From Elusimicrobiota bacterium (GTDB lineage: Bacteria > Elusimicrobiota > Elusimicrobia > UBA1565): a stretch of 64,000 bases of DNA. This document shows positions 6,412 through 55,644 of this stretch, piece after piece; position 1 is the stretch's first letter; each line of letters begins with the position of its first letter. The DNA lies in assembly GCA_016212885.1 (NCBI GenBank), contig JACRDO010000118.1, forward strand, positions 6,296 to 70,295. The letters run 5' to 3'. The notes under the pieces were generated by a model. It did not search any database, was not told the origin of the DNA, and saw only the letters and a program-made list of their open reading frames with translations. Position numbers and translations under genes: made by a program.

Positions 6412-6428
6412 TATTGCGCGTGAAGCCC

Positions 6429-9400: not shown

Positions 9401-10193
9401 GAAGCCCGCCGATGATGCGGACGAAGAAGCATGTCGTGATGTGCGGGTGGAGGCCGAGGCCCACCCAGGTATTGGCTTCCTGGACGAATCTTTCCAGGGC
9501 TTTGCGGTTGGCGACCCTGTCCTCTCGCGGCGACTTGACCGCAAGCTCCATGGCCCAGCCCCGGTGGTACGCCTTATGGACCGATCCGAAGCCCCCTTCG
9601 CCGAGCAGGCCTCTCACCTCATAAAGGCCCTCGATGATGGCCCCGGGGCTCCATGCCGGCGCCCGGCCCGCCTCGGCAGCCTGCGCTCCGGGGCCCAAAG
9701 TCAATGTCTCCTCGTCCCCGGGGCCCTTTGCCGCTTCCAGTTTAGCGTCAAAGTACGATGCGAGTGGAGATACGGCCTGCGCATCGCCCAAGGTCATGGT
9801 CTGGACGGATTTCCAGGCCATCAATTGCCTGAGCTGGGAGACATACATCCGCGCGGTCTCGAGATGCTTCTCATCTTTGGGCTCCGCGGCGGCGATATAT
9901 TCCTCGAAAGCCTTCAGGGCCCCGGAGTGCTCGCCCTTCGCCGTCAGGTGTTTCCCCAGGCTGTAGTGGGAGGGGGCATGTTTGGGATCCGCGGCCAAGG
10001 CTGAGCGCAGAGCCTCGATGGCCTCGTCCTTTCGCCCGAGCTTCTCCAGCGACTTGGCCAGATTGAAATGCGTTGCGGCTGATCGGGGATCTATGCGGAT
10101 CGCTTCGCGGAACTCCAGGACGGCGTCCTCGCAGCGGCCTTCTTTGTAGAACGCCGAGGCTTTCTGGAAATGCTCGCGGAAAGCGTCAGGCAT
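6429..10193 (-). CDS. Ser/Thr protein kinase with N- and C-terminal TPR units, a WD40 beta-propeller and a transmembrane segment
   Basis: Hanks kinase motifs: 'GEGGFGSVHKA', 'HRDLKPGNCLM', 'DFGLAK', 'GTPEYMAPE'. Followed by at least 7 WD40 blades ('LRLW', 'LKLWEL'…), a TM helix 'WIGAAAAAAAVILAFFGV' and a C-terminal Cys motif. Start overlaps the cyclase stop by 1 nt. Confidence 0.85.
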   Translation of the reverse strand: MPDAFREHFQKASAFYKEGRCEDAVLEFREAIRIDPRSAATHFNLAKSLEKLGRKDEAIEALRSALAADPKHAPSHYSLGKHLTAKGEHSGALKAFEEYIAAAEPKDEKHLETARMYVSQLRQLMAWKSVQTMTLGDAQAVSPLASYFDAKLEAAKGPGDEETLTLGPGAQAAEAGRAPAWSPGAIIEGLYEVRGLLGEGGFGSVHKAYHRGWAMELAVKSPREDRVANRKALERFVQEANTWVGLGLHPHITTCFFVRIIGGLPRIFIEYMEGGSLADWLKSRKVQDAKTALDAAIQIARAMEHAHSRGLVHRDLKPGNCLMTPGGTLKVTDFGLAKVGEEEEEAESAEELHKGAKIAKVREATMTGRLGTPEYMAPEQWRQAGKAAQAADIWAFGVILHEFALAGKPFGMNDGEPPDAFYARMLESGWALKMPAKLDADIREVIASCLSPEPVKRPKDFKLLQERLESAYRRLVGEAYPREAVKAVPLMADALNNQGVSMADLRRSEEALRLFEEALKIDPTHPGALYNRGMLLLGAGKMKAAELISRLAESRKSRPRDWIPGYLMGLAHLRGKDRGSAAKELDGALELSQKNPLIERARRKAEGGAFDDSIELFVAFPKGAESAKMEDSAFRTLMARAEQELALGRWDQACQTIAKARGVQGYEQSAQALELMHRLGHKGVRKGLRAAWRKLSLPGSGSALCACATPDGRHVLSGHEDKTLRLWHISTGALLWSLQAHEGPVSAVCAAANGKHAVSGGADGAVKLWELPSGKPVRSLKGLGGPVCSICTTPDGASALSGNSDKTLRLFDLWLGKQELSVEAHAGSVACVAASPDGALALSGGKDCSLCLWGLPGGGRIRALEGHSGAVLSACILPNGRHALSASADKTLKLWELSTGRCARTFEGHEGPVHGVCATPEGRFALSAGADGKPRLWDLAAGESVWTFEGPQGEASSVCLTPDARRAVFAGAEGVSVWELDWSYVFPAALDWDKEARPYVESFLAARRKTGMSPVEKGLGEEEFEALLEELGRRGFGWLKPEGVRRKLEAVGKEGWGEARPVPKYFWIGAAAAAAAVILAFFGVMRMKTSAAKEERAGSGKAAFAKPAPPEDGRKPAAPEPKSSLDMLQQGRQAIFRGESAAGDDSGEQKPPFIPAVEGKAPDNEAAKRRWGIGLAAFRNGDYERAREEWRLCRQLDPANMDCVKGLQEVNAAENKGLSPLSGGEGFSRGIGHKFQKLDLGNTLKQEKTENKKR

Positions 10194-11851
10194 TACCAGG
10201 GGGCCAAGTGCCAGACCTTCACCAGGCCGTGGCCCTTGATCTCGGCCTCGCCGCCGCTTTCGCAGCGGAACTCGGGGCCGAGGGCCTCTTTCGCCGCGTC
10301 TGAAAGGGCGATCCCGTTGGGGCGGGCCAGCTTCTCGATGCGCATGGCCTCTCCCACCGCGCCCCCTATGACGCCGTACTCAATGCGTCCTTTGAAGCCG
10401 AAGTTCCCCGCCGTCACCTCTCCGTACGCCAGGCCCGCGCGCAAAGCCATGGCGTACCATTCCTTGGGCGCGGTCCTCATCCGCCACTCGGATATGAGGT
10501 CGCGGCCTGCGCGCGCCGCCTGCGCCGCGGGGTTGGCGCGCTCCAGGGTCGACTCCTTGAAGGGGTGCGCGCCGAAAACCCCCAACGCCGAGTCGCCGAC
10601 GAACCTGTCCACGATCCCGCCGTGCCTGTGGATGCACTCAGCGGAAAGCCGGTAGAACTCGTTGAGGGCCCGCCCGAGCTCGGCCGGGGACCCTTTGTTC
10701 GCGAGGTCGCCGAAGCCCTGGATGTCCGCGCATAGGACCACCGCTTGGCGCTTGCTCAGGGCCAGGGCCGCGGGGTCTGCCCGGCATTCTTCGGCGATCT
10801 TCCAGGCCGCGTCCGAGTCGAAGTGCTCTTTGAGGTTCTCCTCGATCACCGCGAGCGCGTCCTGCTTCTCCGCCGCGAGCTGCAGAGCGGCCACCCCGGC
10901 CAGGGCGCCGGCCATGAAGAGGTCCTCCATCCCGAAGGACATGCCGTTGTCGCGGTTGTCCATGTAGAGGTAGCCGGCGGCGGAGTCGAGGCCCGCCAGA
11001 GGCAGCACCAGCCCGGAGCTGATGCCCTTGGCCGCCTGGCTCCTGGTGCGGTCCGCGATGACCGCCTCCAAGAGGTAATAGGAGCCCGGCTCGAGCTTGC
11101 GCAGGAGCCCGGAACTGAACTGGAAGTCGAAGACCTGTCCGAGGAACCGTTGGACCGCCATGCGCACGGAGATCTTCCCGCCCGAGCCTACGGCCAGGAT
11201 AGCCGCGACCCCGGCGCTCCGGATCTTCTGCTGGGCGCAGTTCAGGATCGCGAGCATGCGCTCATCCGCGCCCTGCGCCGCGATCATCTGCCGGAAGAGG
11301 CCTTCCATGTCCGCGAAGGCCCTCAGAAATCGCGGGTCCCCCGCGTCCAGCGTGCCCGACTTCCGAGCCCGGGGCTTCTCGAAGAGCTCGTCCGCGTTGA
11401 CGGAAGGTTCTTTAAGCTTCTCCACCTTCAGGCGCCAGGGGCCCAGGCCGATCTCGTCGCCCTCCGTCATGGGCTCGGGCTTCGAGATGCGCGAGCCGTT
11501 GAGCAGGGTCCCGGCTGCGCTCGGCTTGCGCGAGCCGGTCTCCGGGATGACCTGGAAGCTGCCGTCCCTGAGCAGGGGATTGCCGCCCTGCTCCACGATG
11601 TGGCAGTGCCAGCGGCTGACCCCCTTGGCGCGGGGCCCGGCGCTTGGGAAGACGAGCTGGCAGTTCAGGGCCCTTCCCAGGACGAAGGGGGACGCGTTCA
11701 CGGGGACCGACTTCTGGCCCGCCAGGCCCTCGCGCAGGACCCACTGGGAAGCCCCGGACTTCCAGAGGCAGGTGTAATCGGCGGGTAGGGCGAGCTGGAT
11801 ATTCAATTGAGCATTAGGGTCGGCCCGAGCCCGGATGGGCCGAAGACGCAT
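10193..11851 (-). CDS. FHA-domain / class III adenylate-guanylate cyclase
   Basis: N-terminal FHA hallmarks ('LGRALNCQLVF…SRWHCHI…LLNGSRI'). C-terminal CYCc block ('VVLCADIQGFGDL', 'FVGDSALGVFGA', 'GLAYGEVTAGNFG'). The middle GAF-like region is uncertain. Confidence 0.8.
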   Translation of the reverse strand: MRLRPIRARADPNAQLNIQLALPADYTCLWKSGASQWVLREGLAGQKSVPVNASPFVLGRALNCQLVFPSAGPRAKGVSRWHCHIVEQGGNPLLRDGSFQVIPETGSRKPSAAGTLLNGSRISKPEPMTEGDEIGLGPWRLKVEKLKEPSVNADELFEKPRARKSGTLDAGDPRFLRAFADMEGLFRQMIAAQGADERMLAILNCAQQKIRSAGVAAILAVGSGGKISVRMAVQRFLGQVFDFQFSSGLLRKLEPGSYYLLEAVIADRTRSQAAKGISSGLVLPLAGLDSAAGYLYMDNRDNGMSFGMEDLFMAGALAGVAALQLAAEKQDALAVIEENLKEHFDSDAAWKIAEECRADPAALALSKRQAVVLCADIQGFGDLANKGSPAELGRALNEFYRLSAECIHRHGGIVDRFVGDSALGVFGAHPFKESTLERANPAAQAARAGRDLISEWRMRTAPKEWYAMALRAGLAYGEVTAGNFGFKGRIEYGVIGGAVGEAMRIEKLARPNGIALSDAAKEALGPEFRCESGGEAEIKGHGLVKVWHLAPW

Positions 11852-11916
11852 CTGACGCTGGGATTATATGAAATCACCGCTGGGGAAGAATCAATGCTGC
11901 AGCGCCGAGGCCCTGC

Positions 11917-21350: not shown

Positions 21351-24300
21351 TTACTTCGGCAGGCCGTAGATCTCGGTCATGTAGTCGCCGAGGGTTCGCG
21401 CCTGGATCCGGTCGTTCTCGATGCGCAGGATGAGTGTGTCCGGAGTCGCGCCTTGGCGCACAAGGCGGCCCAAGCTCGCGATGGGCGGCAGGTCAAAATC
21501 CTGGCCGTAGTAGGCGATGGCGTCGATGGCCGGCGCGCGAAGCATCCCGGCCAGGCGCTCCTCAAGCCGCAAGGCGTGGAAAGTCGCCCGGTCGAGTAAG
21601 CGCACGGCCCGCAGGATGCGCGCGCGCAGCCTGGCCGCGCGCTCCAGCGCCGAGGCCGCGGCCTGCAGGTCCTCGGCCTCGGTGAAGCGGGGCGCCCACT
21701 GGAAGCGGACCGCGCTCGCCCGGCCGAAGGGGGCGAGCCGCACGGCCGCGGCCGAGGGTTTGGCGGAGAACTGCTCGGCCGCGCCGCGCTCGTAGGCCCG
21801 GCGGGCGACTTCCATAAGGCTCTTCAGATCCGACTTCGAGTAGCCGTTGCGCCGGGCCGCGTTCTCGCTCAAAGCCACCTCCAGGGACCCCACGGGCCGC
21901 TGGGTGGTCGAGGGCAGGCGCCCCGTCTGCATGTGGAAAGGGAGGATGGACTTGAGCGCGCGGATGCGCAGGTTGAAGCGCCCGCTGACCGGATCGCGCG
22001 AAACGCTGACGATCTGGGTGTCGGGGGTGAAGAACTTGCCGGTGGCCAGCCAGCTTAGGCACTCGGCGCATAGCTTTTTGAAATCCCCGCCGCTGTTGCT
22101 GACCACGATGGCGCGGACCTTGGCCGCTGTCCCGGCCGCGGCGAGGGCCGCGAGGATGGCGGCGCGCTCGGCGCAAAGAGTGACCTCGCGGCTGAGCTCC
22201 ACGTTGGGGGCCGAGGCCCAGCGTCCGTCCGAGAGCTCGACCGCGGCGTGCACGTGGAAGCCCGAGAAATTCGGCTGATCGCGGGCCTCGTCCTGCACCG
22301 CGGCGTAGGTCTCCAGGGCCTTGGCAACCAAGACCTTGAGGCGTCCCGGGCCCGGCACTTCGCCGGATACGTCCACCTGGCTCAGGGCTTTCTCCAGGTC
22401 CCCGGCAGGCAACGGGCTCGGGGTGCGGTCGGCTTCTATGGAAGCGCTCAGCATCTTGAGGAAAAGCTCGGTGGCGCGGGCGTCGCGGCCGTTGGCGGCC
22501 CATTCCTGGGCCAGCAGCTCGGCGTAGGCCTGCGGGAGGCGCTCGAGCTCCTGGGCGCTCATGAGGTTCAAGACCACGTCGGCCTTCTCGCGCAAAGGCA
22601 GGATGTTCGCGCGCTCGTTGACCAGCAGATGCGCCCACCCCCGCAGGTTCTGTCCCACCGCAATGCCGCGTTCGGTCTTATCGCGCTTCAAGCGCCTCGC
22701 CAGGCGCACCGCGGTCGGCGCGGCCAGGTAGACGTTGAGCGAGCTGTGGCCCTCGATGGCCTTGAGGAAGGCCTCGTGGGAGGCGAAGATCGAGTCCACG
22801 ATGACGACGTCGTCGGGGCCGAGCTGGAGGAACTCTCCGCTGTCGAAAGTGGTCGGGCCGTCGATGACGTGCCGGGGCAGCTCGATGCGGCCTCCCGCCA
22901 GCAAGGTCTTGAGGTCCTGCGCCGCGCGGTCGAGATAGAGCGCGTCTGGACGGTCGTAGTCCGGGCGGCCCTGCGGGTCCGGGGCGATCTCGTTGGGCGG
23001 CTTGAAGTAGCGGTCCACCGGGAATACCGCGATGCGGCCCTTGAGGGTCTTATGGATCTGCTCGGCCAGGGTGGATTTTCCGGCCGCTGTCGGGGCCTCG
23101 AGGAGGATGGCGCTGCGGCCGGGGAGCGCCTGGACGCGGTCGAGGAGGGAGGCGAGCTTCTCGTCAGCGTCCGCGCTCTTGAAGCGCGGGTAATCCGTGC
23201 CCCGGAACTCCCGCTTCACCAGGGCCTGGGCGTCGGCCAGGAGGCCGTCGGCGGGGGCCGAGGTCTTGCCCCGGCCCAAGGCGCCGGCTTTCTCGGCGGC
23301 CCGCACCACCGGCCCGAGCGCCGCGTTCGCGGCGCGCGGCAGGTACATCTGGGCCAGCACCGTGCCGCCCATCACGACGGCCACGATCGCGTTGAAGGCC
23401 CAGCGCAGATCCCCGCCCATCAGCGCCGCGAAGAGGTGCATGAGGCTTCCCGCGATGAGCAGGATCTTGTAGAGCGGCGAGATGCCTTTCGGGGCCCGCC
23501 CTTCGTTCCTGAAGATGAGGTAGTTCCGGCGTATCTGGGGAGCGTCGAGCACCCACAGGATGCCCATGGCCGCGGTGAACGCGGCAGTGAGCCCCGCGGA
23601 GAGCGGCAGCAGGGCTTGGGTCGCGATCAGCGCCACCGGGATCGCAGTGCCGATTATCGCGGCCAGGGTCGCCTTCAGGGCCCGGGCATCGCGCTTGAAA
23701 TAGTTCAGCTGCCCGATGACGGCCAGGCTCTCGACCACGCCGGCTACGTTGGCGGCGTTCCACCAGAGGCTCGAGCCCTGGCCGATGGAGACCAGGGACA
23801 GCAGGCTCGCGGCCGCGAACCACATGAGCGGCCCGCTCAGGACCACGTCCTTGACGCCTTCGCGGCCCATCTTGAAATTGGTGATGATCTGCGGGATGCC
23901 GATGACGCTCAGGGTGATAGAGCCGGCGGCCGCGACCAGCCCGACATGCGCGGCCAGGAGGGGCGCCGTTGCGGCCAGAGCGGCCGCGGCCAAAGCGCCG
24001 GCGGCCAACCGGACCGCGGGCTTCTGCCAGAAGGTCTTGGCCTGGGCCGGAGCAGGCGCCGCGGAAAGAACGGGCACGGTCTCGGAGACGGCAACGGGCC
24101 CAGCCTGGAGCTTGGCGGGCTGAAGGCCCGAAGGCCGCAGATCGGCCGTGAGCGTTTCCGGAGCCTGGGCCGCGGCCTCGCTTTCGATTCCGGATACCAG
24201 CTTGTCGCCGTGCAGATCCGCGAAAACCTTCTCGGCCGAGCCCTTGGAGGATTCGGCCGGGGCGTCTTTCTTGAAGCCCGGCTGCTCCAGGCTCTTTTGG

Positions 24301-24758
24301 ACCTGCTCGGAAACCGTTTGAAGGGCCGGGATCTCGCGGCGGACATCGTGCTTTGCGGGAGCCGGCTTAGATACATCCGCCGGGACATGGGCCGCGACCC
24401 GGGTCTCCCCGATGACTGGAGCGACCAAGCGCGCGACCGCCTGAACCGGCTGCGCCTTGGCCGTTGTTTGCGGGGCGAGAACCGGCTTAACGACGTCTGT
24501 ATGGGATCTGGCCGGGGCCGGCAGATAGAGCGACGCAAGCCCTGAGACCGGCGCCAGCGCCGTGTTCTGAATCGGATTGGAGAGCCCGTTGACGGGCACT
24601 CCGATAGTGAGGGCCTGGACAGGAACGATCTGAACCGGTGAAGCGCTTGCCTGGACGTTCCCCGCGTTCGTGACGACGGCTTGTGCCGCGGCCGGAGCGA
24701 CCTCCCAGGCCAGCTGCACCAGCGCCATCAGGATCGAGAACCAGCGCTTCATATTCAC
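21351..24758 (-). CDS. membrane protein: signal peptide + low-complexity region + 7-TM PQ-loop domain + uridine-kinase-like P-loop domain + cytidine-deaminase-like zinc domain
   Basis: Two PQ-loop motifs ('GIPQIITNFKMG', 'DAPQIRRNYLIF') within roughly 7 TM helices. Walker A 'LLEAPTAAGKSTLAEQI' with a Udk-like fold ('VFPVDRYF', 'VVIVDSIFA'). Deaminase motifs 'LCAERAAILAA' and 'KLCAECLSWL' (H/C-A-E and C-x-x-C zinc ligands). Confidence 0.6.
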   Translation of the reverse strand: MNMKRWFSILMALVQLAWEVAPAAAQAVVTNAGNVQASASPVQIVPVQALTIGVPVNGLSNPIQNTALAPVSGLASLYLPAPARSHTDVVKPVLAPQTTAKAQPVQAVARLVAPVIGETRVAAHVPADVSKPAPAKHDVRREIPALQTVSEQVQKSLEQPGFKKDAPAESSKGSAEKVFADLHGDKLVSGIESEAAAQAPETLTADLRPSGLQPAKLQAGPVAVSETVPVLSAAPAPAQAKTFWQKPAVRLAAGALAAAALAATAPLLAAHVGLVAAAGSITLSVIGIPQIITNFKMGREGVKDVVLSGPLMWFAAASLLSLVSIGQGSSLWWNAANVAGVVESLAVIGQLNYFKRDARALKATLAAIIGTAIPVALIATQALLPLSAGLTAAFTAAMGILWVLDAPQIRRNYLIFRNEGRAPKGISPLYKILLIAGSLMHLFAALMGGDLRWAFNAIVAVVMGGTVLAQMYLPRAANAALGPVVRAAEKAGALGRGKTSAPADGLLADAQALVKREFRGTDYPRFKSADADEKLASLLDRVQALPGRSAILLEAPTAAGKSTLAEQIHKTLKGRIAVFPVDRYFKPPNEIAPDPQGRPDYDRPDALYLDRAAQDLKTLLAGGRIELPRHVIDGPTTFDSGEFLQLGPDDVVIVDSIFASHEAFLKAIEGHSSLNVYLAAPTAVRLARRLKRDKTERGIAVGQNLRGWAHLLVNERANILPLREKADVVLNLMSAQELERLPQAYAELLAQEWAANGRDARATELFLKMLSASIEADRTPSPLPAGDLEKALSQVDVSGEVPGPGRLKVLVAKALETYAAVQDEARDQPNFSGFHVHAAVELSDGRWASAPNVELSREVTLCAERAAILAALAAAGTAAKVRAIVVSNSGGDFKKLCAECLSWLATGKFFTPDTQIVSVSRDPVSGRFNLRIRALKSILPFHMQTGRLPSTTQRPVGSLEVALSENAARRNGYSKSDLKSLMEVARRAYERGAAEQFSAKPSAAAVRLAPFGRASAVRFQWAPRFTEAEDLQAAASALERAARLRARILRAVRLLDRATFHALRLEERLAGMLRAPAIDAIAYYGQDFDLPPIASLGRLVRQGATPDTLILRIENDRIQARTLGDYMTEIYGLPK

Positions 24759-24845
24759 AGTGTATGCGGCGATTAGGCTTGGAACCTGGGTCTAATAGGG
24801 AAGGGAACGGGCGGTAAAAGGACTATGCCTTGGTGGGCCGTCAAA

Positions 24846-24872
24846 AAGGCCCCAGTTTCCCGGGGCCCTTTG
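24846..24872 (-). terminator. putative Rho-independent terminator downstream of cas3
   Basis: On the minus strand: GGCCCC-gggaaact-GGGGCC stem-loop followed by TTTTT. Located ~180 nt after the cas3 stop. Confidence 0.45.
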
Positions 24873-25053: not shown

Positions 25054-27321
25054 TCACCCCACCCAAGTCGACGGGTCCGCGGCCGGGACACTCTCATCGG
25101 CCGTGAGCCCGAACTCCTCGGTGTAGAGGGCCTTGCGCTCCGGCTTGAGGATCAGGAAGAGATTCTGCACGGCATAGAGTACCCCGGCCTTCAGCCAGTC
25201 CTCCGCCTGCTTGCTCGGGATGTTGACGGAGTAGCCCTGCAGGCGCCTTGCCAGGGCCCTAAGGACCGCCGGGGACTTCACGTATTCGGCCTGCTTGAGC
25301 ATCTCGGTGGACAGGCCGCGGTTGTCCGGAGGCCCCCACGGCACGATGATGGCGGCCTGCCGGCAGCCGTCGATGGACTTAAACGCCTTGGCCGCGTCTT
25401 CGAACCGGAACTGCTCGCGCATCGCCAGGATCCCCAGGGGATCTTGAGCCCGGTGGAGGCTCTGGTGGAGCCTTGCGCAGGTGTCCGGAGCCAGGAAATC
25501 GATCTTTGAATCCATCGTGTAGAGTGTCCTGGCCAGGTCCGCGGCCTTGCGCAGATGCTCGACCATGGGCTTGCTCGGGGAGTCGAAGAGGACCACGCGG
25601 CCCTCCATCAGCCGGCTCTCGCGGTTGCAGCGGCCGGCCGACTGGACGACGGAATCCAGCCCGGCCATGGCCCGGAAGACGACCGGGAAATCCATGTCCA
25701 CTCCCGCCTCGACCGGCTGGGTCAGGACGGCCCGGACCGGCTTGCCCGCGGCGGCCAAAGCCTTCTTGATCTCCATGAGCCTCTCCCGGCGGTGCCGGGC
25801 GCACATCAAGGCCGAGAGGTGGAACACGGGCTCGTCGGGATAGCGCGCTTTCACGAGCTTGATCAAGGCGCGCGCGTCCTCCGGCCGATTGACGATCGCC
25901 AGGACTCTTTTCTCGGCGTAGACCGCTTCCGCGGCCTCCCCCAGGGTCTTCGCCGGCGAATGATCGACGCGGACGCGCAGCGAGGCGAAGGATTCTTCCA
26001 CCTCCTCCGGGGTCCCGGCCAGCTCCGTGATCCTCTTGAACCCCAGGATCTTCTGGGCGCCCGCCGAGGAACTCCCGAGCAGGTCCGGCTGGACGGAAGC
26101 GGACAGGACGATGCTCGAGCCGTGATGCTCCGCGAGGCTCTCGAGCATGTCCAGCGCCGGCGCCAGGAAGGCGCTCGGCAGGGCCTGCGGCTCCTCGAGG
26201 ATGATGACGCTGCGCGCGAGGTTGTGGAGCCTCCGGCACTCCGAGGGGCTCCTTGCGAAGAGGCTTTCGAAGAACCGGAGGGCGGTGGTGACGATGAGCG
26301 GAGCGTCCCAGTTCTCCGCCGCCAGCCGGGTCCGGCGGTGCTCTTTCACAAGCTCCATGCCGCCGTGCTCTTCGATGAAGGCCGGCTCATAGACCTTCGC
26401 TCCGGGGACGATGAGCGCCTTCCGGAAGGCGGCAACGGTCTGGTCCGGGATGGTCATGAACGGCACGACCACGATGATGCGCTCGAGCTTGTGGGCCAAG
26501 GCGTGGCCTAATGCGAAGGCCAGGCCGGCGTAGGTCTTCCCCCCTCCGGTCGGGACCCTGAGGCTGAAGACCCCTGGCGGCTGCGCCGCACAGCCGCGGC
26601 AGCGGTCCAGGATTCGGCGGCGGCGGACATTGATGGGCCTCTCATCCGCCTCGCCCAGGACCCTCCGCATATATTTGTCGAACCGGTCCGCCAGCTCGCG
26701 CAGCGGCGGATAGGCCTCCTGCGCGGCCGGCTTCCCCTCCGAATAGAAGGCCTCGGTATCCAGGAAGTCCGCGTCCGCCAGCGCCGAGAACAGCAGGCGG
26801 GTCTTCAGCTCCATATAGCGCAGGAGCTCCTCCCCCGGGAGCTTCAGCGAGGCGGGATAGAACGGAGGCAAGCCTTTCCGGAAAGGCTCCTGCAGGCTCT
26901 TTGGGAACGCGCCCGGCTCGAACTCGGAGAGGATGGACCTGCTCAGCTGGTAGCGGACGTCCTGCCACTCGCTCAAGTTCGGGAGTCCGCCGTGATGGCC
27001 GGCGATAGCCATGGCCAGCGGGGTGCCGCTCGGCCCGAGCCTCTCGACCGCATAGACCGCGCCGGCCGAGGAGTGGTCTATCGCCCCGGGGACCCCCTCC
27101 AAGTGCGCGCTCTCGCCGCCCGCGGCCCGGATGCGGTCTTGGAACTTCGGGTGGTACTTCCCCAGGTCGTGGAGCAGGCCCGCGGCCCTGCCCCAGTCCC
27201 CGGCCGAGAACTTCGCGGCGAAGGCCGCGGCGCGCTCCCCGACCTCCTTGAGATGCTCGTCGAGGGAATGCTCCCGATTGGCCTGAGGTTCGATGTGAGC
27301 GAGGGCGCCCACGGCAGTCAC
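25054..27321 (-). CDS. cas3: CRISPR-associated helicase/endonuclease Cas3 (HD nuclease + DExH helicase), orphan
   Basis: HD motifs 'HSLDEH', 'LLHDLGKY', 'IAGHHGGL'. Helicase motif I 'LRVPTGGGKTYAG', motif II 'VIILEEPQAL', motif VI 'QSAGRCNRE'. Start placed at GTG/TTG around 27321-27324 because the upstream M2 peptidase gene ends at 27318. The first 130 aa of the listed ORF overlap that gene and are not coding. Confidence 0.75.
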   Translation of the reverse strand: MTAVGALAHIEPQANREHSLDEHLKEVGERAAAFAAKFSAGDWGRAAGLLHDLGKYHPKFQDRIRAAGGESAHLEGVPGAIDHSSAGAVYAVERLGPSGTPLAMAIAGHHGGLPNLSEWQDVRYQLSRSILSEFEPGAFPKSLQEPFRKGLPPFYPASLKLPGEELLRYMELKTRLLFSALADADFLDTEAFYSEGKPAAQEAYPPLRELADRFDKYMRRVLGEADERPINVRRRRILDRCRGCAAQPPGVFSLRVPTGGGKTYAGLAFALGHALAHKLERIIVVVPFMTIPDQTVAAFRKALIVPGAKVYEPAFIEEHGGMELVKEHRRTRLAAENWDAPLIVTTALRFFESLFARSPSECRRLHNLARSVIILEEPQALPSAFLAPALDMLESLAEHHGSSIVLSASVQPDLLGSSSAGAQKILGFKRITELAGTPEEVEESFASLRVRVDHSPAKTLGEAAEAVYAEKRVLAIVNRPEDARALIKLVKARYPDEPVFHLSALMCARHRRERLMEIKKALAAAGKPVRAVLTQPVEAGVDMDFPVVFRAMAGLDSVVQSAGRCNRESRLMEGRVVLFDSPSKPMVEHLRKAADLARTLYTMDSKIDFLAPDTCARLHQSLHRAQDPLGILAMREQFRFEDAAKAFKSIDGCRQAAIIVPWGPPDNRGLSTEMLKQAEYVKSPAVLRALARRLQGYSVNIPSKQAEDWLKAGVLYAVQNLFLILKPERKALYTEEFGLTADESVPAADPSTWVG

Positions 27322-29258
27322 CAAGCGCAGGATCGGCCCGAGTTCTCTTTCTTGAGAAACTCGGTCAGGGGCTCGAAGTAGTCCATCATCGCCTTGGTGC
27401 TGAGGTCCGAGCCGGTCTTCTCGCGCAGGAGCTCGCGCCAGTCGCGGGTCGCGCCCGCGGACAGGAGCCCCTTGAGGAAGGCGCCCGCTTCCTTGCTGTT
27501 GGAATAATCGCAGGTGCGCGGGTCCTGCTTGGCGATGTTGCGGCAGATGTAGGTATGCAGGTGGTACTTGAGAACCGTGGCGATCGCGTAGTTGTAGTAG
27601 TAGACGGGGTTGTCGTTGAGGTGGGTCTTGGTGCAGGCGTCGCAGTACTCCTCTGCGCGGGGCGAAGGTGGCTTCACGCCCTGGTATTTGGCGACATGCT
27701 CCCACCAGCGCGCGTTCCACTGCGCGGTGGACAGGTTGTTCTCGTAGATGTCGCGCTCCCAGGCGGACACCGTTCCGGCGGCCCAGGGCAGGAAGGAAAC
27801 GGTCTCCACGAGGGCTTCGTTGAGCAGCCAGCGGGTCTGGTCGATCTCCTTGCCGGCCGGGAGCACCCCCAGGCGGCGGAGATAGGACTGCCGCATGGAG
27901 GCGAGGGAGCCCAATTCCGCGATGCCCTCATGGAAGGCGCGGTTCGCGCCCTCGCGCAGGAGGAATGGCACATCGGGCCGCGTGTAGGCCTGGTAGTAGA
28001 AGATGTGCCCCAGCTCATGGTGGGCAGTCATGAACCATTCCCTGTCCGGCTTGATGTTCATGAGGGAGCGCATGTCGCCGGACAAGTCGATGTTCCACGC
28101 CGAGGCGTGGGTATTCTTCTTGCGCTTGGAGTCCAGGGGCAGGGCGTAGAGGTCCGACTTCTTCCAGAACGACTCCGGCAGGCGGTCGAACCCCAGCGAG
28201 ACATAGTAGTCTTCCGCGGCCTTGACGAACCACGACGGTTTTCTGTCCTTGAAATAGGGGTCGAGGTCCATGCCCTCCACGATCCCGGGCCATTCCTGGG
28301 ACCAGCGGTTGCCGAGCCAATGGGCCGGGATGAGCTTGGGCGGGGGCTGCCCGTAGCGCTTGGCCAGCTCATACTTGGTCCAGCAATGGAGCTGTTCGTA
28401 GAGCGGCCGTATGTCGCGCAGGAAGCCGTCCAGGAGCGCGGACATCTCGGCAGCTGTCATCCCGTAGTCCGCGGTCTGCAGGCCGAAGTAGGAGCTGAAG
28501 CCGAAGCTCTTCGCGACCGCGTTGCGCAGGGCCCTCAACTCGGCGAGGCCCGGCTTGAGGACCGGGCCGATCTCCTTGGAGGCTTCCCAGACCTTCAGGC
28601 GCACGGAGAGGTCTCTCGTCGAGACGAGGAGGTCGTCGATCTCGTTGGCCGTGGTCGGCTTGGCGCAGGAGCCGTCCAAACTTTCCAAACTTCGTAGGTT
28701 TGGACGTATCGAACCTACGCCGTTTGGAAGGTTCGATGCGTCGGGGTTCTTCTCCAGGCAGAAAACGAAGGAGTCCATGGCGCTCGACTGCCGGCCTTCA
28801 GCCTCGACGCGCTTGGCCGCGATCTCCGGCAGGGTGGCGGGGTTTTCGGCAGCTGCGAGGCGGATCTTCTCCAACTGGCGCACCGTCAAAGGCTGGAGGT
28901 CCCCCTTCCTGGCGAGGAAGCGCTGGACCTGCTCGATGACATAGCGGCTTCCGGTGAAGGAGGCCATGGCCTTGTTGGCCGCGATGCGGCCCCCGTCGTG
29001 CTCGGGCGTCACGTCGGTCGAGGCGTCCCAGGACGCTTCCTGGGACACGGCGTAGAGGCCTTGATAGTAGCCGTTATGCGCTTTAACGAAAGCCTCGGCC
29101 TCCTTTTCGATGTCTCCGGCCGGGGAGCTGGAGCACTCTTCGGTCACGATGACTTTCACGCCGGCCTTGATCATTTTCCCGGCGCCCGGCGAAGGGGCGG
29201 CGGAGAGCGGCGCGGCCAGCAGGATGGAGATCAGGAACCCCGGGATTTGCCTTTGCAT
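27318..29258 (-). CDS. secreted peptidase family M2 (angiotensin-converting-enzyme-like dipeptidyl carboxypeptidase) with N-terminal extension
   Basis: Zinc motifs 'HHELGH' … 'HEGIAE' at ACE-like spacing. Signal peptide 'MQRQIPGFLISILLAAPLSAAP'. An in-frame copy of the palindromic repeat lies at 28674-28742. Confidence 0.7.
   Translation of the reverse strand: MQRQIPGFLISILLAAPLSAAPSPGAGKMIKAGVKVIVTEECSSSPAGDIEKEAEAFVKAHNGYYQGLYAVSQEASWDASTDVTPEHDGGRIAANKAMASFTGSRYVIEQVQRFLARKGDLQPLTVRQLEKIRLAAAENPATLPEIAAKRVEAEGRQSSAMDSFVFCLEKNPDASNLPNGVGSIRPNLRSLESLDGSCAKPTTANEIDDLLVSTRDLSVRLKVWEASKEIGPVLKPGLAELRALRNAVAKSFGFSSYFGLQTADYGMTAAEMSALLDGFLRDIRPLYEQLHCWTKYELAKRYGQPPPKLIPAHWLGNRWSQEWPGIVEGMDLDPYFKDRKPSWFVKAAEDYYVSLGFDRLPESFWKKSDLYALPLDSKRKKNTHASAWNIDLSGDMRSLMNIKPDREWFMTAHHELGHIFYYQAYTRPDVPFLLREGANRAFHEGIAELGSLASMRQSYLRRLGVLPAGKEIDQTRWLLNEALVETVSFLPWAAGTVSAWERDIYENNLSTAQWNARWWEHVAKYQGVKPPSPRAEEYCDACTKTHLNDNPVYYYNYAIATVLKYHLHTYICRNIAKQDPRTCDYSNSKEAGAFLKGLLSAGATRDWRELLREKTGSDLSTKAMMDYFEPLTEFLKKENSGRSCAW
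28674..28742 (+). repeat. palindromic repeat family, copy A (in frame inside the M2 peptidase CDS)
   Basis: GTCCAAAC…CGTAGGTTTGGACGTATCGAACCTACGCCGTTTGGAAGGTTCGATGCG. Nested inverted repeats. Encodes …SNLPNGVGSIRPNLRSLESLDG… in the host frame. Confidence 0.7.
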
Positions 29259-37754: not shown

Positions 37755-40700
37755 TCACGGCGAAGCAGGCAGCTGGTTGATATCCGCTTTCCAAGGCTCC
37801 AACTTCCTTTTGAGCTTGTACCACTCCTTGGCGGGGATCGCCTCACGCTCGCCCCGGTCGTTGATCCTGGAGAGGCTGGCCAGTTGGGCCATCATCAGCA
37901 GCTTTTGAGGCGACACATCCTGATTAAGCCAAGAGACATCCCAAAGCCGGGCGGTTGCGTCCGGGCTTCCGGTTACGATCTCTCTTCCATCCGGACTGAA
38001 GGCGCCGGTGCATACCATGTTATCATGCCGCATGACCTTGCCTATAGGTTCGCCGGAAAAGGCATCCCAGAGCCGAGCGGTCTTGTCATCGCTTCCTGTA
38101 AGCACGCTTCTGCCATCCGGGCTGAAATCCACCGCTTTAACTGAGTCATCATGGCGCATGACCCTGCCAATCGGCTCGCCGGTCTTGGCATCCCAAAGCT
38201 GTGCGGTCTTATCCATGTTGCCCGTAAGCACATGCTTCCCGTTTGAACTGAAAGCTACCCCCATTACGGGCTTGACACGATGCATGGCCTTGCCTATCGG
38301 CTTATCCATGCGGATATCCCAGAGCTGCTCGGTCCTATCCGTAGTTTTCACAAGCGCAGTTCTTCCGTCCCGGCTGAAGGCCTCAAGCTGAGCCCAACTT
38401 TCATGCTTTATGACCTTGCCGATGGGCTCGCCGGTCTTGGCATCCCAAAGTCGAATAGCACCATAGGCGCTTCCCGTCAGCAAGCAGCTGACGTCAGGGC
38501 TGAAGGCAACCAGGGAAACGGCGTCCCCATGCGGCATGATTTTTCCTACCGGCTCCCCAGTCTTGGCATCCCAGAGCCTGGCGGTATTGTCCCGGCTTCC
38601 TGTAAGCACCGATTTCCCGTCTGGACTGAAGGCAACCGCGGAAACTCCGCCCCCATGCGGCATGATTTTGCCTGCCGGCTCCCCAGTCTTGGCATCCCAG
38701 AGCCTGGCGGTATTGTCCCGGCTTCCTGTAAGCACCGATTTCCCGTCCGGGCTGAAGACGGCGCACATCACCCGATCTTCATGCCGCATGACCTTTCCCA
38801 CCGGCTGACCCATATCGGCATCCCAAAGCCGGGCGGTGTTGCTCCAACTTCTCGAGAGCACGCGCTTCCCATCCGGGCTGAAAGCGACTGCCGCAACTGC
38901 GTCGCCATGCTTCAGAATCTTGTATGCGGGTCCCGCAGGATTCACATCCCAGAGGCGAGCGATTCCATCTTGATCGCCAGAGAGCACGCTTCTCCCATCG
39001 GGACTGAAGGCGAGTGCCGCAACTGCGTCATCATGCCGCATGACCTTGCCTGTCGGCTCGCCGGTTGTGGCATCCCAAAGTCGAGCGGCTTTGTCCCGAC
39101 TTCCTGTAAGCACGTGCTTCCCATCCGGACTGAAAGCGACCGCCACGACTACGTCATCATGCCGCATGGCTTTGCCTATCGTCTCGCCGGTTTTGGCATC
39201 CCAAAGCCGGGCGGTGTTGTCCCAACTTCCCGTCAGCACGCTCTTCCCATCCGGGCTGAAGGCGACCGCCGTAACTGCGCCATCATGCCGCAGAGCCTTG
39301 CCCATCAACTTGCCGGTCTTGGCATCCCAGAATCGGGCGGTCCTGTCCCAGTTTCCCGTCAGCACGACCTTCCCATCCGGACTGAAGGCGACTGCCGCAA
39401 CCGCGTCCGTATGCGGCAAAACCTTGCCTATCGGCTCGCCGGTTTCGGCATTCCAGAACCAGACGGTGCCGCTGCTTACCGTAAATATGCGCTTCCCGTC
39501 CGAACTGAAGGCAACTCCCCTAACGCTGTCATCATGTTGCATGACCTTGCCTATCGGCTCGCCTGTATTGGCGTCCCAAAGTCGGGCGATTTTGTCCCAA
39601 CTCCCCATAAGCATACGCTTCCCATCCGGACTGAAAACAGCCGCCTCAACTCCTGCATCAGCATGCATGATCTGGCCTGCCGGCTCGCCTGTACTCGCAT
39701 CCCAGAGCTGGGCGAGCGAAATGGTGTCTGCCGTCAATGCGCGCTTGCCGTCCGGACTGAAGGCAACGGCGGAAATTCCGAAGGGATGTTGAAATACGAG
39801 CCTCGGAATCCCCGCCGCCTCCACATGCGCCAGCGCGTTCGCTCGCGCCATATAAGAAGGAGATAGCCTGTTGGACTCCGCGTAATAGAGCGCGGCGAGG
39901 GCATCTTCGCCTTTCTCCGAGTACTGCCTCCCCTGCATCGCGTACGACATCGCAAGCTGCTGTTTTAGGGCCTGCTGCTGGCGATAGACTTTGATCCCTG
40001 TCAGAAGAAGGCCGGCGAATGCGACGCCGCACAGCACAGCCAGCGCGGCCCTGCGCCGCGCGAACTTCTTGAACCTGTAGAACGGCCGGTAGGCAAGCGG
40101 GCTCACCGGCCTGTGCTCGCGCCTCGCCGTCAGATCTTCCAGAATCTCGGCCGCGGTCGCATAGCGCTTGCCCGCATCGGCCTGCGCGCACTTGTCGATG
40201 ATCGCCCCGATGTCCTCGTCCACCCTGCCATGCGTGACTTCGCGGCAGCCTTTGAGCGGCTGCTTATCAGGTATTTCTCCGGCCAACGCCGCGTACATCG
40301 TGCGGCCCAGCCCGTAGATGTCCCCCCTCACATCCGGCTTAAGAGGCCGGCCGAAATCCGCCACGCGCGCATGCTCCTCTTCATCCAAGAGCACGTTGGC
40401 CGGCTTCAGGTTGCAGTGGAGGATGCCCTTCGAGTGGACGTAGGCGAGCGCCTGCGCGATCTCCTCCAGCCACTGGGCGGCCTTCTCGGCCGGCGCGGGC
40501 TTCTTCATGCAGACGAACAGCTCAAGAGACCCGCGCTTCAAGTAATCCATGACGTAGTAGGGCGGATCGCCGGTCAAGTCCACGTCCAAGATGGAAACGA
40601 TGTTCGGGTGCTTGTCCAGGCGGACGAGCTGCTCGATCTGGCGCTGGAGAGAAGGCCAGTCCACGCCGCCCTTCTGCAAAAACACCTTCAACGCCACCCA

Positions 40701-40832
40701 TCTCCGGGCGCGGACCTGCCAGGCCTTCCAGACCTGCGAAAACGCGCCGCGGCCCAAGGGCCAGGTCAGGATGTAGCCGGGGATCTTCGGGGCTTGCGGG
40801 TCCTGCTCTGGAAGCTGAGCCTCTCCTTCCAT
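37755..40832 (-). CDS. Ser/Thr protein kinase with TM segment and ~16 WD40 repeats (paralog of 6429-10193)
   Basis: Kinase subdomains ('LGRGAFSQVWKA', 'LHCNLKPANVLL', 'ADFGRP'). TM 'ALAVLCGVAFAGLLLTGI'. Repeated 'FSPDGK.VLTGS.D.TARLWDA.TGEP.GK' blades. Confidence 0.8.
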   Translation of the reverse strand: MEGEAQLPEQDPQAPKIPGYILTWPLGRGAFSQVWKAWQVRARRWVALKVFLQKGGVDWPSLQRQIEQLVRLDKHPNIVSILDVDLTGDPPYYVMDYLKRGSLELFVCMKKPAPAEKAAQWLEEIAQALAYVHSKGILHCNLKPANVLLDEEEHARVADFGRPLKPDVRGDIYGLGRTMYAALAGEIPDKQPLKGCREVTHGRVDEDIGAIIDKCAQADAGKRYATAAEILEDLTARREHRPVSPLAYRPFYRFKKFARRRAALAVLCGVAFAGLLLTGIKVYRQQQALKQQLAMSYAMQGRQYSEKGEDALAALYYAESNRLSPSYMARANALAHVEAAGIPRLVFQHPFGISAVAFSPDGKRALTADTISLAQLWDASTGEPAGQIMHADAGVEAAVFSPDGKRMLMGSWDKIARLWDANTGEPIGKVMQHDDSVRGVAFSSDGKRIFTVSSGTVWFWNAETGEPIGKVLPHTDAVAAVAFSPDGKVVLTGNWDRTARFWDAKTGKLMGKALRHDGAVTAVAFSPDGKSVLTGSWDNTARLWDAKTGETIGKAMRHDDVVVAVAFSPDGKHVLTGSRDKAARLWDATTGEPTGKVMRHDDAVAALAFSPDGRSVLSGDQDGIARLWDVNPAGPAYKILKHGDAVAAVAFSPDGKRVLSRSWSNTARLWDADMGQPVGKVMRHEDRVMCAVFSPDGKSVLTGSRDNTARLWDAKTGEPAGKIMPHGGGVSAVAFSPDGKSVLTGSRDNTARLWDAKTGEPVGKIMPHGDAVSLVAFSPDVSCLLTGSAYGAIRLWDAKTGEPIGKVIKHESWAQLEAFSRDGRTALVKTTDRTEQLWDIRMDKPIGKAMHRVKPVMGVAFSSNGKHVLTGNMDKTAQLWDAKTGEPIGRVMRHDDSVKAVDFSPDGRSVLTGSDDKTARLWDAFSGEPIGKVMRHDNMVCTGAFSPDGREIVTGSPDATARLWDVSWLNQDVSPQKLLMMAQLASLSRINDRGEREAIPAKEWYKLKRKLEPWKADINQLPASP
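38527..38778 (+). repeat. near-identical 126-bp tandem duplication (two WD40 blades) inside the kinase-WD40 gene
   Basis: Two consecutive 126-nt units differing at only a few positions. Encoded blades 'DNTARLWDAKTGEPAGKIMPHGGGVSAVAFSPDGKSVLTGSR' and 'DNTARLWDAKTGEPVGKIMPHGDAVSLVAFSPD…'. Confidence 0.7.
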
Positions 40833-44799: not shown

Positions 44800-45096
44800 T
44801 CACCGCCCTATTGTGTGCAAGGCGGAATATTCGGGCACGCCGATGTACCTGTCCGGACGATACCGATGATGCTCGGCCAAGAAGTGGTCAAGCCTCCCCG
44901 AAACTTTGGCGGAGATGTATGCCTCGTCGCACTGCCGGCATACGTCAGCCGGCACGTCTTTAATGACGAGCAACTCCCCGCCGATCCATAACTCCAGGGT
45001 GGTTTCGCCGCGCCTCAACTCCCCCCCACACAAGTCGCACCGGTCTACTATCTTCCTTGTCTTTTGACCTTTCGAGTTCTGTAGTCGCTTTCCCAT
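44800..45096 (-). CDS. YgiT-type zinc-finger protein (MqsA-like antitoxin N-domain)
   Basis: 'CDLCGGELRRGETTLELWIGGELLVIKDVPADVCRQCDEAY' is a CxxC…CxxC zinc ribbon. Overlaps the upstream DUF4258 gene. Confidence 0.6.
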   Translation of the reverse strand: MGKRLQNSKGQKTRKIVDRCDLCGGELRRGETTLELWIGGELLVIKDVPADVCRQCDEAYISAKVSGRLDHFLAEHHRYRPDRYIGVPEYSALHTIGR

Positions 45097-45389
45097 AGGG
45101 TATCCTCCGGCTCATATACCGTCACAATGCGCAGTGCTGGTTCCACGTCTCCCCTTGAACAAACGACGTGCAGCGGATCGCCCGAAGCCCCCCGCCCAAG
45201 CACCAAACAAGATGGATACGGCGTGTCATCCGGATATCGTTCGATGATCTCCCCTTTGAGCAGTGCTCGTTCCAATTCATTAACTCCGATACCTCGTTCC
45301 AGCCGGATGATGGTGGCATGCTTTGTCAGTCGATACCGTTTGGCCCGGACGTGGCTGTGGATGAAGTGTAGACTGGGCGCTTCGGGCAT
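45048..45389 (-). CDS. DUF4258-like putative toxin
   Basis: 113-aa ORF 'HFIHSHVRAKRYRLTKHATIIRLERGIGVNELERAL'. Typical partner of zf-YgiT genes. Confidence 0.45.
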   Translation of the reverse strand: MPEAPSLHFIHSHVRAKRYRLTKHATIIRLERGIGVNELERALLKGEIIERYPDDTPYPSCLVLGRGASGDPLHVVCSRGDVEPALRIVTVYEPEDTLWESDYRTRKVKRQGR

Positions 45390-47669: not shown

Positions 47670-48062
47670 CTACGAACCACAGAGCCGCAACCCTGGGACG
47701 CTGCGGAAATGAGCGTCGTAGCTTACTAGGACCGAACCCGTCTCCACGGCCTGCGCGGCCAGCCAAAGGTCATTGACCGGTATCGGCGTCCCGGCGCGCT
47801 TGAGGCGGTCTTTGATCTCGCCGAAGATCTCCGCGGTATCGAGGGTCAGGAGCAGGGAGGAGACGGTCGGCTTGGCCAGGAACTCCCCCAGTATCCGTTC
47901 ATTTTCCTCCCGCCTGCCGCTTCCTCGGAATCCAGCGTGCAGCTCCCCAAGAACGATGACGGACAGGTAGACGGCCTCGGCGCCGGCCAGGATATCGAGC
48001 ATGCGCCGGTCCCCGGAGCAGAAGGCGGCGTAAGCGTTGGTGTCCAGCAGGACCCGAGTCAT
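47670..48062 (-). CDS. vapC: PIN-domain toxin VapC
   Basis: 'MTRVLLDTNAY…' with later acidic residues (ELHAG…, YDAHF). Overlaps the antitoxin gene. Confidence 0.75.
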   Translation of the reverse strand: MTRVLLDTNAYAAFCSGDRRMLDILAGAEAVYLSVIVLGELHAGFRGSGRREENERILGEFLAKPTVSSLLLTLDTAEIFGEIKDRLKRAGTPIPVNDLWLAAQAVETGSVLVSYDAHFRSVPGLRLCGS

Positions 48063-48313
48063 GCCCAATCTTCAGGATCGACGCGTTCGAGCTCTTGGAT
48101 CGCTTTCCTGAAGTTCGCTCCTTCCTTTTGGGACCAGACGCCGCACAGCGGCTCGAAGTCCTTCCGGCGGTCGGTCCGGGAGGAGGAAAGGCCGAGGGCC
48201 TTGGCAAGAAGTTTCTTGATGAGCTTGTTGAGGCTCAGCCCCCCCTCGATGGCCTGCCGCTGAAGACGCGCCGCCAATTCGTCGTCCATGCCGTGGATGG
48301 TGAGGGATTTCAT
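48059..48313 (-). CDS. VapB/FitA-like antitoxin
   Basis: 84-aa ORF 'MKSLTIHGMDDELAARLQRQAIEGGLSLNKLIKKLL' is an RHH-like plasmid-stability antitoxin N-terminus. Immediately upstream of the PIN gene. Confidence 0.65.
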   Translation of the reverse strand: MKSLTIHGMDDELAARLQRQAIEGGLSLNKLIKKLLAKALGLSSSRTDRRKDFEPLCGVWSQKEGANFRKAIQELERVDPEDWA

Positions 48314-48370: not shown

Positions 48371-48653
48371 TCCCTGGTTGTCAAGACCCCCGACCAATGC
48401 TGAGCTGAGAGCATTGTTTGCCCATCTTCGAAAATCTCGCCGATTGCGCCAATATAATCGTTTTTCAAGAGCCATAATCAACTCGCTTGCATAAGGTCAA
48501 AATTTAATCAATAATCTTGTTGCATAAGCGTTCTATTCGATATTTCTATGCAGGTAAGCAATTCAAGTCAACACTCACCCCAACCTGCCGGCTACGCAGC
48601 CCTGATCAAACGGTACGGCCTCAAGGTCATGCCAAACTGGCACGAATCCTACG

Positions 48654-55634: not shown

Positions 55635-55644
55635 AACCTGCTCC

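Follow-up and report, generated by a model that had tools for sequence, protein, structure and literature searches.

Results

The locus lies in a 64-kb stretch of DNA, which we refer to as the window. Its centrepiece is a cas3 coding sequence of the type I-C lineage on the minus strand (positions 25054–27321), which runs unbroken over 755 codons from a GTG at 27321 to a TGA stop at 25054–25056. Upstream on the same strand lies a gene for an M2 (ACE-like) zinc peptidase (27318–29258, minus strand; 646 amino acids from the ATG at 29258; Pfam Peptidase_M2), and the two genes meet in a GTGA junction (27318–27321, minus strand) where the cas3 GTG candidate start overlaps the peptidase TGA (27320–27318). 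Downstream, a 295 bp gap containing a terminator-like hairpin separates cas3 from a fusion gene. The genes around cas3 are chromosomal ones for housekeeping and signalling, and none from a phage or plasmid adjoins it; the GC3 of cas3 is 0.80, and both GC3 and base composition are host-like.

The product was identified by profile searches. Pfam detects Cas3_HD (34.9 bits, cutoff 23.1), DEAD (27.7 bits, cutoff 26) and Cas3-like_C_2 (49.8 bits, cutoff 27); the TIGR01596 cas3_HD model scores 96.7 bits (cutoff 43.45), and the TIGR01587 cas3_core model scores 93.4 bits, which is under its cutoff of 102.45. The top PADLOC profile is Cas3c (580.9 bits, E = 1e-174; another Cas3c score is 517.8), compared to 295.8 for the best Cas3b profile, 105.6 for Cas3e and 90.5 for Cas3g. 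The nearest solved proteins are the type I-C Cas3 structures 8ZNS and 8G9U (chain P), with phmmer E-values of 2e-106 and 2e-102. The top Cas3 relatives are 52% identical and are located in complete I-C operons; no relative exceeding 52% identity was found among the 5.8 billion proteins searched, and a scan of a genome collection returned relatives of at most 41% identity. Judged by its sequence, the gene thus encodes a genuine type I-C Cas3.

The HD nuclease domain (approximately residues 1–200; 26722–27321, minus strand), which scores above the TIGR01596 cutoff, was compared residue by residue with 81 Cas3 proteins from comparison loci and 116 database relatives. The motifs HSLDEH, LLHDLGKY and IAGHHGGL, quoted in the preliminary description of this DNA, are all present in the 755-codon frame, and the set of catalytic residues is complete (H9, H23, H51, D52, H109, H110, S179, D183 and D188). 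The residues probed by mutation in NlaCas3 (H8/H25/H52/D53/H118/H119/S192; PMC11417383) are likewise all kept.

The SF2 helicase core (RecA1 and RecA2, approximately residues 230–600; 25522–26634, minus strand) was delimited by Pfam and TIGR matches and by conserved-column comparison. Of its motifs, Walker A (GGGKT) and motif VI (QSAGRCNR) are unaltered, as is W338, while motifs II and III are off pattern. At the Walker B Asp site of motif II the protein has Glu376 (codon GAG, 26194–26196, minus strand) and reads L-E-E-P-Q instead of L-D-E-x-Q; Asp occupies this site in every one of the 116 database relatives and the 81 comparison-locus proteins, and the site aligns with NlaCas3 D392 and TfuCas3 D451. 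NlaCas3 D392 is an ATPase residue (cf. TfuCas3 D451), and the D392A mutant retained some nuclease activity (PMC11417383). No usable data on Walker B Asp-to-Glu replacements in Cas3 or DEAD-box proteins turned up in literature searches. Motif III (codons GCT TCC GTC, 26092–26100, minus strand) encodes A408-S409-V410 in place of the [T/S]-A-[T/S] of relatives: the three positions are T/S, A and T/S, each in 81/81 comparison-locus proteins, and T-A-T in 99–100% of the 116 database relatives. The changes D376E, T408A, A409S and T410V therefore all fall at sites that are invariant or T/S-only in the 81 independent relatives, and further changes at near-invariant sites are Q349R, R480P and L536P. 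The earlier assignment of a bona fide Cas3 from its HD and SF2 motifs stands as regards Cas3 identity and the HD motifs, but not as regards a fully canonical set of SF2 motifs, given LEEPQ and ASV at motifs II and III. The possibility raised there that the motifs might prove degenerate, which would speak against its reading, is borne out for these two helicase motifs and not for the HD motifs, which are intact.

We next quantified deviation across the whole protein, defining a highly conserved column as one at least 95% conserved among a reference set of 116 Cas3 relatives (162 columns). The window protein deviates at 20 of these columns and keeps 142, while the relatives deviate at a mean of 1.68 (sd 1.82, max 9, n = 116). 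By domain, the deviations number 3/44 in HD, 17/108 in the helicase core and 0/10 in the C-terminal domain (approximately residues 601–755; 25057–25521, minus strand); the apparent enrichment of the helicase over HD is not significant (Fisher p = 0.19). Approximately half of the replacements are conservative (D>E, A>S, K>R, V>I, I>L). So far, a cas3 without partners and with an altered motor is a single instance.

Acceleration of the protein as a whole is modest, with a root-to-tip distance of 0.548 compared to 0.468 ± 0.033, and Tajima relative-rate tests with true outgroups gave p = 0.001–0.8, that is, weak acceleration. Strongly significant tests using members of the P0002–P0016 clade as outgroups were discarded as invalid, since in the tree the window protein branches as the sister of this entire clade. 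In a neutral simulation with substitutions only, matched to the excess changes, about 10% of replicates remained stop-free; because indels were ignored, the true stop-free fraction would drop below this value. An open reading frame without stops is thus improbable under neutrality, and some selection may persist on cas3, which favours a retained function.

As the preliminary description had stated, cas3 has no other cas gene or array for company in the 64 kb. A Pfam search of some 45 large ORFs identified no other cas genes in the window, tblastn with type I-C Cas5c, Cas8c, Cas7c, Cas4, Cas1 and Cas2 gave a best E-value of 0.13, relaxed tblastn for cas pseudogene debris returned only dispersed chance-level matches, and neither CRISPR-like repeats nor Rfam matches were found in the window. 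Such solitude is unusual for type I-C. Directly after cas3, 79 of the 84 comparison loci carry cas5c-cas8c-cas7, and the other five end at contig edges; 9 of 15 sister-clade Cas3 proteins, as contigs of equal length indicate, appear to share a contig with Cas8c. Among 11 Cas3c loci on viral contigs, most have cas5c/cas8c adjoining, and two of the three that do not are cut at the contig end. The best 120 matches to the closest Elusimicrobia Cas8c include no second annotated Elusimicrobia Cas8c, the unannotated entries carrying no accession.

The upstream gene is indeed, as first described, that of a putatively secreted ACE-like M2 peptidase. It matches PF01401 with 329.5 bits over profile positions 4–581 of 581, contains the zinc site HHELGH with a downstream HEGIAE, and has a hydrophobic, signal peptide-like leader at its N-terminus. 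Three cas3 start codons (TTG 27324, GTG 27321 and GTG 27312) are each compatible with homologue N-termini, so that the overlapping pair at 27321–27324 cannot be the only plausible start, as had been claimed: the NCBI version of the protein (MBI5244272.1, 752 aa) begins at GTG 27312, 5 nt past the peptidase stop. Since all three starts fall within 12 nt, an intergenic promoter could not fit between the genes, and a simple promoter scan detected no sigma-70-like promoter. The arrangement is not conserved. Neither cas3 nor any other window neighbour accompanies the M2 peptidase in 43 M2 loci (0/43), and an M2 peptidase is found in none of 84 Cas3c loci (0/84); the adjacency is unique to this contig.

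At the other end of the gene, the PQ-loop/kinase/deaminase fusion does come next, in agreement with the preliminary description, but the two genes are set apart by the 295 bp and a putative terminator. This hairpin (GGGCCCCGG-GAAA-CUGGGGCC followed by UUUUU; 24843–24868, minus strand) begins 186 nt past the stop codon of cas3, with about 85 nt left before the start of the fusion gene; a folded 71-nt segment containing it has an MFE of −27.6 kcal/mol (z = −2.9). A simple terminator scan had missed the hairpin, which was found by direct folding. With the 0/43 and 0/84 counts and the hairpin with its U5 tract in front of the fusion gene, the suggestion that cas3 forms a non-CRISPR module with its neighbours is not supported, and comparison with other loci gives no backing to a functional link between cas3 and the ACE-like peptidase.

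Discussion

The window cas3 is most likely what remains of a CRISPR locus since lost, rather than a new system. More specifically, and with roughly even confidence, we read its sequence and setting as those of a stranded type I-C cas3, its motor relaxed or disabled, that would be co-transcribed by accident with the peptidase gene. The ancestor would have been a canonical I-C operon, cas3-cas5c-cas8c-cas7-cas4-cas1-cas2 plus array, from all of whose other members cas3 later parted, to end up as the final gene of a presumed two-gene unit behind an unrelated gene for a secreted M2 peptidase. Once Cascade was gone, constraint on ATP-driven translocation would have relaxed, and the protein would no longer be a processive nuclease-helicase of CRISPR interference; metal-dependent ssDNA nuclease activity and ATP binding are probably the most that would remain. 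Its expression would rely entirely on the peptidase gene, by way of read-through or coupling, and the adjacency itself would be an accident of rearrangement with no functional module behind it. Among the options offered in the preliminary description, a remnant fits best because the relatives checked are linked to Cascade and only the window copy is altered at invariant helicase residues. The option of a regulatory or repair helicase is weakened, since the Walker B Asp and motif III, which an ATP-driven helicase needs, are both changed. Several observations count against a remnant: the intact reading frame, stop-free in only about 10% of neutral replicates, the 142/162 columns kept and the host-like composition, as well as the chemically conservative nature of an Asp-to-Glu change and the modest acceleration in rate.

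The unbroken frame also lends some weight to exaptation, that is, to a solo Cas3 expressed from the peptidase operon and selected for a non-CRISPR role in repair, turnover, stress response or another form of defence, which we regard as possible but doubtful. Such a role would call on the HD nuclease and might also require ATP binding, whereas processive unwinding would be dispensable. Under neutrality on substitutions alone the chance of a stop-free frame is about one in ten, and less with indels; the HD catalytic residues are all kept, as are Walker A, motif VI and the conserved C-terminal columns; roughly one deviant replacement in two is conservative, cas3 joins the upstream peptidase gene tidily, and NlaCas3 with a dead Walker B Asp retains some nuclease activity (PMC11417383). 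However, the closest relative among 5.8 billion proteins is 52% identical, which gives no sign that a solo lineage has been conserved; partner genes are not conserved either, and the difference in deviation between HD and helicase is not significant (p = 0.19). In its narrower form, in which selection would maintain an HD nuclease on an ATP-binding scaffold deficient in hydrolysis or coupling, the proposal is rather unlikely; such a protein could serve in the repair or turnover of DNA, or as a nuclease that acts on its own in defence or regulation.

Type I systems all rely on a Cas3 that works in trans, at R-loops bound by Cascade, so physical linkage is mechanistically unnecessary, and a working cas3 could have been displaced from an I-C Cascade, adaptation genes and an array located elsewhere in the genome, with the protein recruited in trans. 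The intact conserved columns of the C-terminal domain would suit this, as would the fact that the contig is 73 kb of a metagenome-assembled genome. We nevertheless consider it unlikely: the informative relatives all have cas3 in cis, and this copy departs from working systems at two places where those do not vary, the Walker B Asp and motif III. That the 120 best Cas8c matches include no further annotated one from Elusimicrobia weighs only weakly in the same direction, given the unannotated entries without accession. Changes in the motor motifs combined with intact interaction surfaces would also suit a dominant-negative protein, one that binds Cascade or crRNA and blocks interference, and orphan viral cas genes including the Cas3 homologues AcrVIA2 and AcrVIA2.1 are anti-CRISPRs (bioRxiv 10.1101/2023.06.24.545427). 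Such a decoy is very improbable in this case, as the setting is an ordinary chromosomal one with no phage or plasmid genes adjoining cas3, the known anti-CRISPR homologues have no HD domain and match Cas3 at only about 24% identity, AcrVIA2 requires its DEAD box, and in most of the 11 viral-contig loci the Cas3c relatives carry cas operons. A viral or anti-CRISPR origin was rejected on the strength of this operon context.

If the gene is a stranded remnant, it would offer a view of a CRISPR effector soon after the loss of its partners, in which the invariant residues of the motor are lost first and the reading frame and nuclease site outlast them. It also calls for caution in automated CRISPR typing, as a lone cas3 call here does not equal a working system. 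If selection maintains the gene, we would instead be looking at a Cas3 nuclease that has been exapted for a role outside CRISPR.

Compared to the type I-C Cas3 proteins of known structure (Neisseria lactamica 8ZNS; 8G9U), the window protein has the same domain order (HD, two RecA-like domains, C-terminal domain) and shares the HD residues, Walker A, W338 (NlaCas3 W354) and motif VI. It differs in the Walker B Glu (NlaCas3 D392), in ASV instead of TAT at motif III and in the 20/162 changed columns; its gene has no adjacent cas5c, cas8c, cas7, cas4, cas1 or cas2, no array within 64 kb and no promoter region of its own, beginning instead where an unrelated gene stops. The closest Cas3 proteins, 51–52% identical over the full length, come from two Elusimicrobia I-C loci that share the phylum label with the window (L001, JGI Ga0531532_0011694; L003, GCA_013044195.1 JABEUV010000055.1). 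Their cas3 genes lead complete I-C operons and have canonical DExQ and TAT motifs, whereas the window cas3 is alone and altered in both, and their flanks (an aminotransferase and a small hypothetical protein) are unrelated to the neighbours in the window. Zhang and Ye (2017; PMC5294841) read isolated cas loci without an array as remnants or as systems with remote partners and defined them by at least three cas genes; absence of an array is common to both cases, but the window has a single cas3 with eroded motor motifs. AcrVIA2 and AcrVIA2.1, like the window protein, are Cas3 homologues found away from cas operons. Unlike these phage or mobile-element proteins, which are about 24% identical to Cas3 and have no HD domain (bioRxiv 10.1101/2023.06.24.545427), the window Cas3 has its HD domain and a chromosomal setting, and its motif II is altered where AcrVIA2 needs an intact DEAD box.

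A type I-C Cas3 without partner genes within 64 kb

The product of the minus-strand cas3 gene (25054-27321) is matched best by Cas3c, the PADLOC profile for type I-C Cas3 (580.9 and 517.8 bits), then by Cas3b (295.8 bits), with Cas3e and Cas3g far lower. Its closest solved relatives are the Neisseria lactamica type I-C Cas3, NlaCas3 (PDB 8ZNS, E=2e-106), and the Cas3 chain of 8G9U. While orphan Cas3 calls can be false positives (PMC10333696), the 581-bit Cas3c match rules this out here and confirms the preliminary description of a genuine Cas3. The protein, NCBI MBI5244272.1 ('MAG: CRISPR-associated endonuclease Cas3'' [Elusimicrobia bacterium]'), is a singleton cluster from a 73,246-bp contig, and the nearest of 5.8 billion proteins is only 52% identical to it. 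Two of these nearest relatives, whose metagenome contigs are Elusimicrobia-labelled or related, are encoded at the head of canonical cas3-cas5c-cas8c-cas7-cas4-cas1(-cas2) operons. In a neighbour-joining tree the window Cas3 is sister to a clade of 15 database relatives (P0002-P0016), nine of which have a Cas8c match on the same contig (contigs paired by equal length); its terminal branch is the longest in the tree (0.44), and its root-to-tip distance is modestly increased (0.548 versus 0.468 ± 0.033). For another Cas3c relative, P0115 (1078 aa, 40% identity), precomputed Pfam hits (PF01656, PF13614) indicate a fusion with a ParA/CbiA-like ATPase region.

For comparison, 80 loci with Cas3c relatives were sampled from one-genome-per-species contigs and searched with the six partner proteins of an Elusimicrobia type I-C locus; four further loci were added (n=84). 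cas5c follows cas3 in 79 of the 84, and the remaining five (L006, L023, L045, L054, L072) end 0-800 bp past cas3. Several Gallionellaceae and Sulfuricella loci have a 0.7-1.1 kb insert between cas3 and cas5c, which accounts for L006; the carriers are L014, L015, L018 and L032 (Sulfuricella, Novimethylophilus and Gallionellaceae MAGs), the other loci being free of it. Of 11 viral-contig loci bearing Cas3c-like genes, most hold partner genes too, and two of the three without them are cut by the contig end.

Searching the window with the type I-C partner proteins gave zero matches at E ≤ 1e-3 and, under relaxed settings, scattered chance-level matches only (E ≥ 0.13). Pfam scans of ~45 window ORFs detected no further cas family, and no repeat-spacer structure was found. 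The reported lack of any other cas gene or array in the 64 kb stands in these searches. The sole sizeable tandem repeat (38517-39714) was rejected as a CRISPR array, being a WD40 coding repeat; in the coding sequence of the 1025-aa WD40 protein (37755-40832, minus strand), a 126-bp unit is repeated 9.5 times in tandem (72% matches).

The window has a high GC content (~65%) and appears chromosomal. Small toxin-like genes are dispersed in it (one DUF4258, two PIN-domain, one Fic/DOC; 45048-45389 (-), 47670-48071 (-), 48606-49472 (+) and 1991-2530 (-)). It also encodes a 2048-aa protein (49512-55658, minus strand) that combines HEAT repeats with a subtilase (Peptidase_S8) domain at its C terminus, and a eukaryote-like signalling cluster in which a 1316-aa Ser/Thr kinase bearing TPR and WD40 repeats adjoins an FHA-adenylate/guanylate cyclase protein (6429-10379 and 10193-11863, minus strand) and a PP2C phosphatase (5635-6537).

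Gene neighbours and the cas3 start

cas3 lies second among three consecutive minus-strand genes. The first encodes an M2 (ACE-like) peptidase (27318-29258; Pfam Peptidase_M2, 329.5 bits, whole model covered) with the zinc site HHELGH...HEGIAE and a hydrophobic leader, MQRQIPGFLISILLAAPLSAAPS. The third is a fusion gene of 1135 codons (21351-24758), whose product has an N-terminal region rich in Ala, Pro and Val and a membrane region that matches PQ-loop weakly (19.6 bits; cutoff 22). These are joined by a P-loop domain resembling uridine kinase (Pfam PRK 39.4 bits; NF004018 74 bits, under cutoff) and by a region weakly resembling cytidine deaminase (TIGR01354 41 bits, under cutoff), an unusual joining of pyrimidine-salvage-type domains to a membrane domain.

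One candidate cas3 start, GTG (27321-27319), overlaps the peptidase TGA stop (27320-27318) as GTGA. To call an overlapping start the only plausible one was too strong: the cas3-frame sequence (...CTG CGC TTG GTG ACT GCC GTG GGC GCC CTC GCT CAC) also offers TTG 27324 and GTG 27312, the latter being where the 752-aa NCBI protein begins, 5 nt beyond the peptidase stop. Since homologues have a conserved 'LAH' 3-15 residues past the start, all three candidates fit. A long upstream ORF extension to 27720 is unsupported by the homologue alignment. What does hold of the proposed coupling is that there is no intergenic room for a promoter, and cas3 would most simply be expressed together with the peptidase gene. 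The fusion gene probably has its own transcript, since the 295 bp 3′ of cas3 hold a hairpin, GGGCCCCGG-GAAA-CUGGGGCC, followed by UUUUU (24843-24868).

A scan of metagenome contigs for the M2 peptidase yielded 43 loci (30-73% identity, many with 10 kb each side) containing no Cas3, type I-C Cas protein or other window neighbour; the sole other matches were three weak ABC-ATPase ones. The peptidase is likewise absent from all 84 Cas3c loci, and PADLOC returned no defence-system match for it or the fusion protein. The suggested non-CRISPR module with the neighbours is thus left without comparative support. The fusion protein has a single match in the vicinity of a cas3, an opposite-strand uridine-kinase-like domain (24% identity) ~1.3 kb upstream of the type I-C cas3 of an Elusimicrobiales MAG (JBAYJD010000012.1; locus L043, 8205-8681, minus strand), a proximity that is probably coincidence.

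Eroded motor motifs, complete nuclease site

Among 116 full-length relatives aligned with the window Cas3, 162 columns are at least 95% conserved; it deviates at 20 of these, the relatives at 1.68 on average (sd 1.82, maximum 9). The picture was unchanged in a second, independent set, 81 Cas3 proteins translated from the sampled loci. Numbering from GTG 27321, the Walker B Asp at position 376 (D in 81/81) is Glu (GAG, 26194-26196), and motif III (408-410) reads A-S-V where all 81 relatives have T/S, A and T/S. Arg replaces Q at 349 (79/81), Pro replaces R/K at 480 (81/81), and in motif V Pro replaces L at 536 (77/81). The helicase motifs invoked in the preliminary description therefore survive in part, with Walker A (K262), W338 and motif VI (Q560, R564, R567) retained, whereas its HD motifs are borne out in full, every ligand being present (H9, H23, H51, D52, H109, H110, S179, D183). 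The higher share of deviations in the helicase is not significant (17/108, versus 3/44 for HD; p = 0.19).

In SF2 helicases the role of the motif II Asp is to position Mg-ATP, and that of motif III is to link hydrolysis with strand movement. Judged from these residues, the motor would be weakened or uncoupled, and the nuclease site could still work. The corresponding NlaCas3 residues are H8/H25/H52/D53/H118/H119/S192 (nuclease), W354 (helicase) and D392 (ATPase), and its D392A mutant kept some nuclease activity (PMC11417383).

Remnant or retained gene

The best explanation, to which we give about an even chance, is a type I-C cas3 that became stranded away from its partners, its motor motifs eroding while its nuclease site stayed whole. 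The ORF is unbroken and retains 142 of the 162 conserved columns. In a simple neutral simulation, limited to substitutions and with the 18 excess replacements at conserved sites as target, ~0.053 changes per site were needed and ~10% of runs stayed stop-free, a fraction that indels would reduce further. This argues mildly that some selection on cas3 persists, and for that reason we keep the stranded gene at even odds and give real weight to an exapted solo Cas3 maintained by selection, which the intact ORF, the retained columns and the simulation favour but which we still consider rather unlikely. Less probable again is a displaced cas3 serving a distant Cascade that lacks its own copy. The best 120 matches to the closest Cas8c included no other Cas8c annotated as Elusimicrobia, but this list is short and unannotated NCBI entries in it bear no accession.

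Some viral homologues of Cas3 act as anti-CRISPRs, but these have no HD domain and reside on mobile elements (bioRxiv 10.1101/2023.06.24.545427); the window Cas3 shares neither trait, and an anti-CRISPR reading was rejected. Isolated cas loci are common and have been interpreted either as leftovers or as loci partnered with distant arrays (PMC5294841). Among them, the present cas3 would be a genuine but unexceptional case, a stranded gene of type I-C, to which our analysis adds the erosion of motor motifs beside an intact nuclease site.
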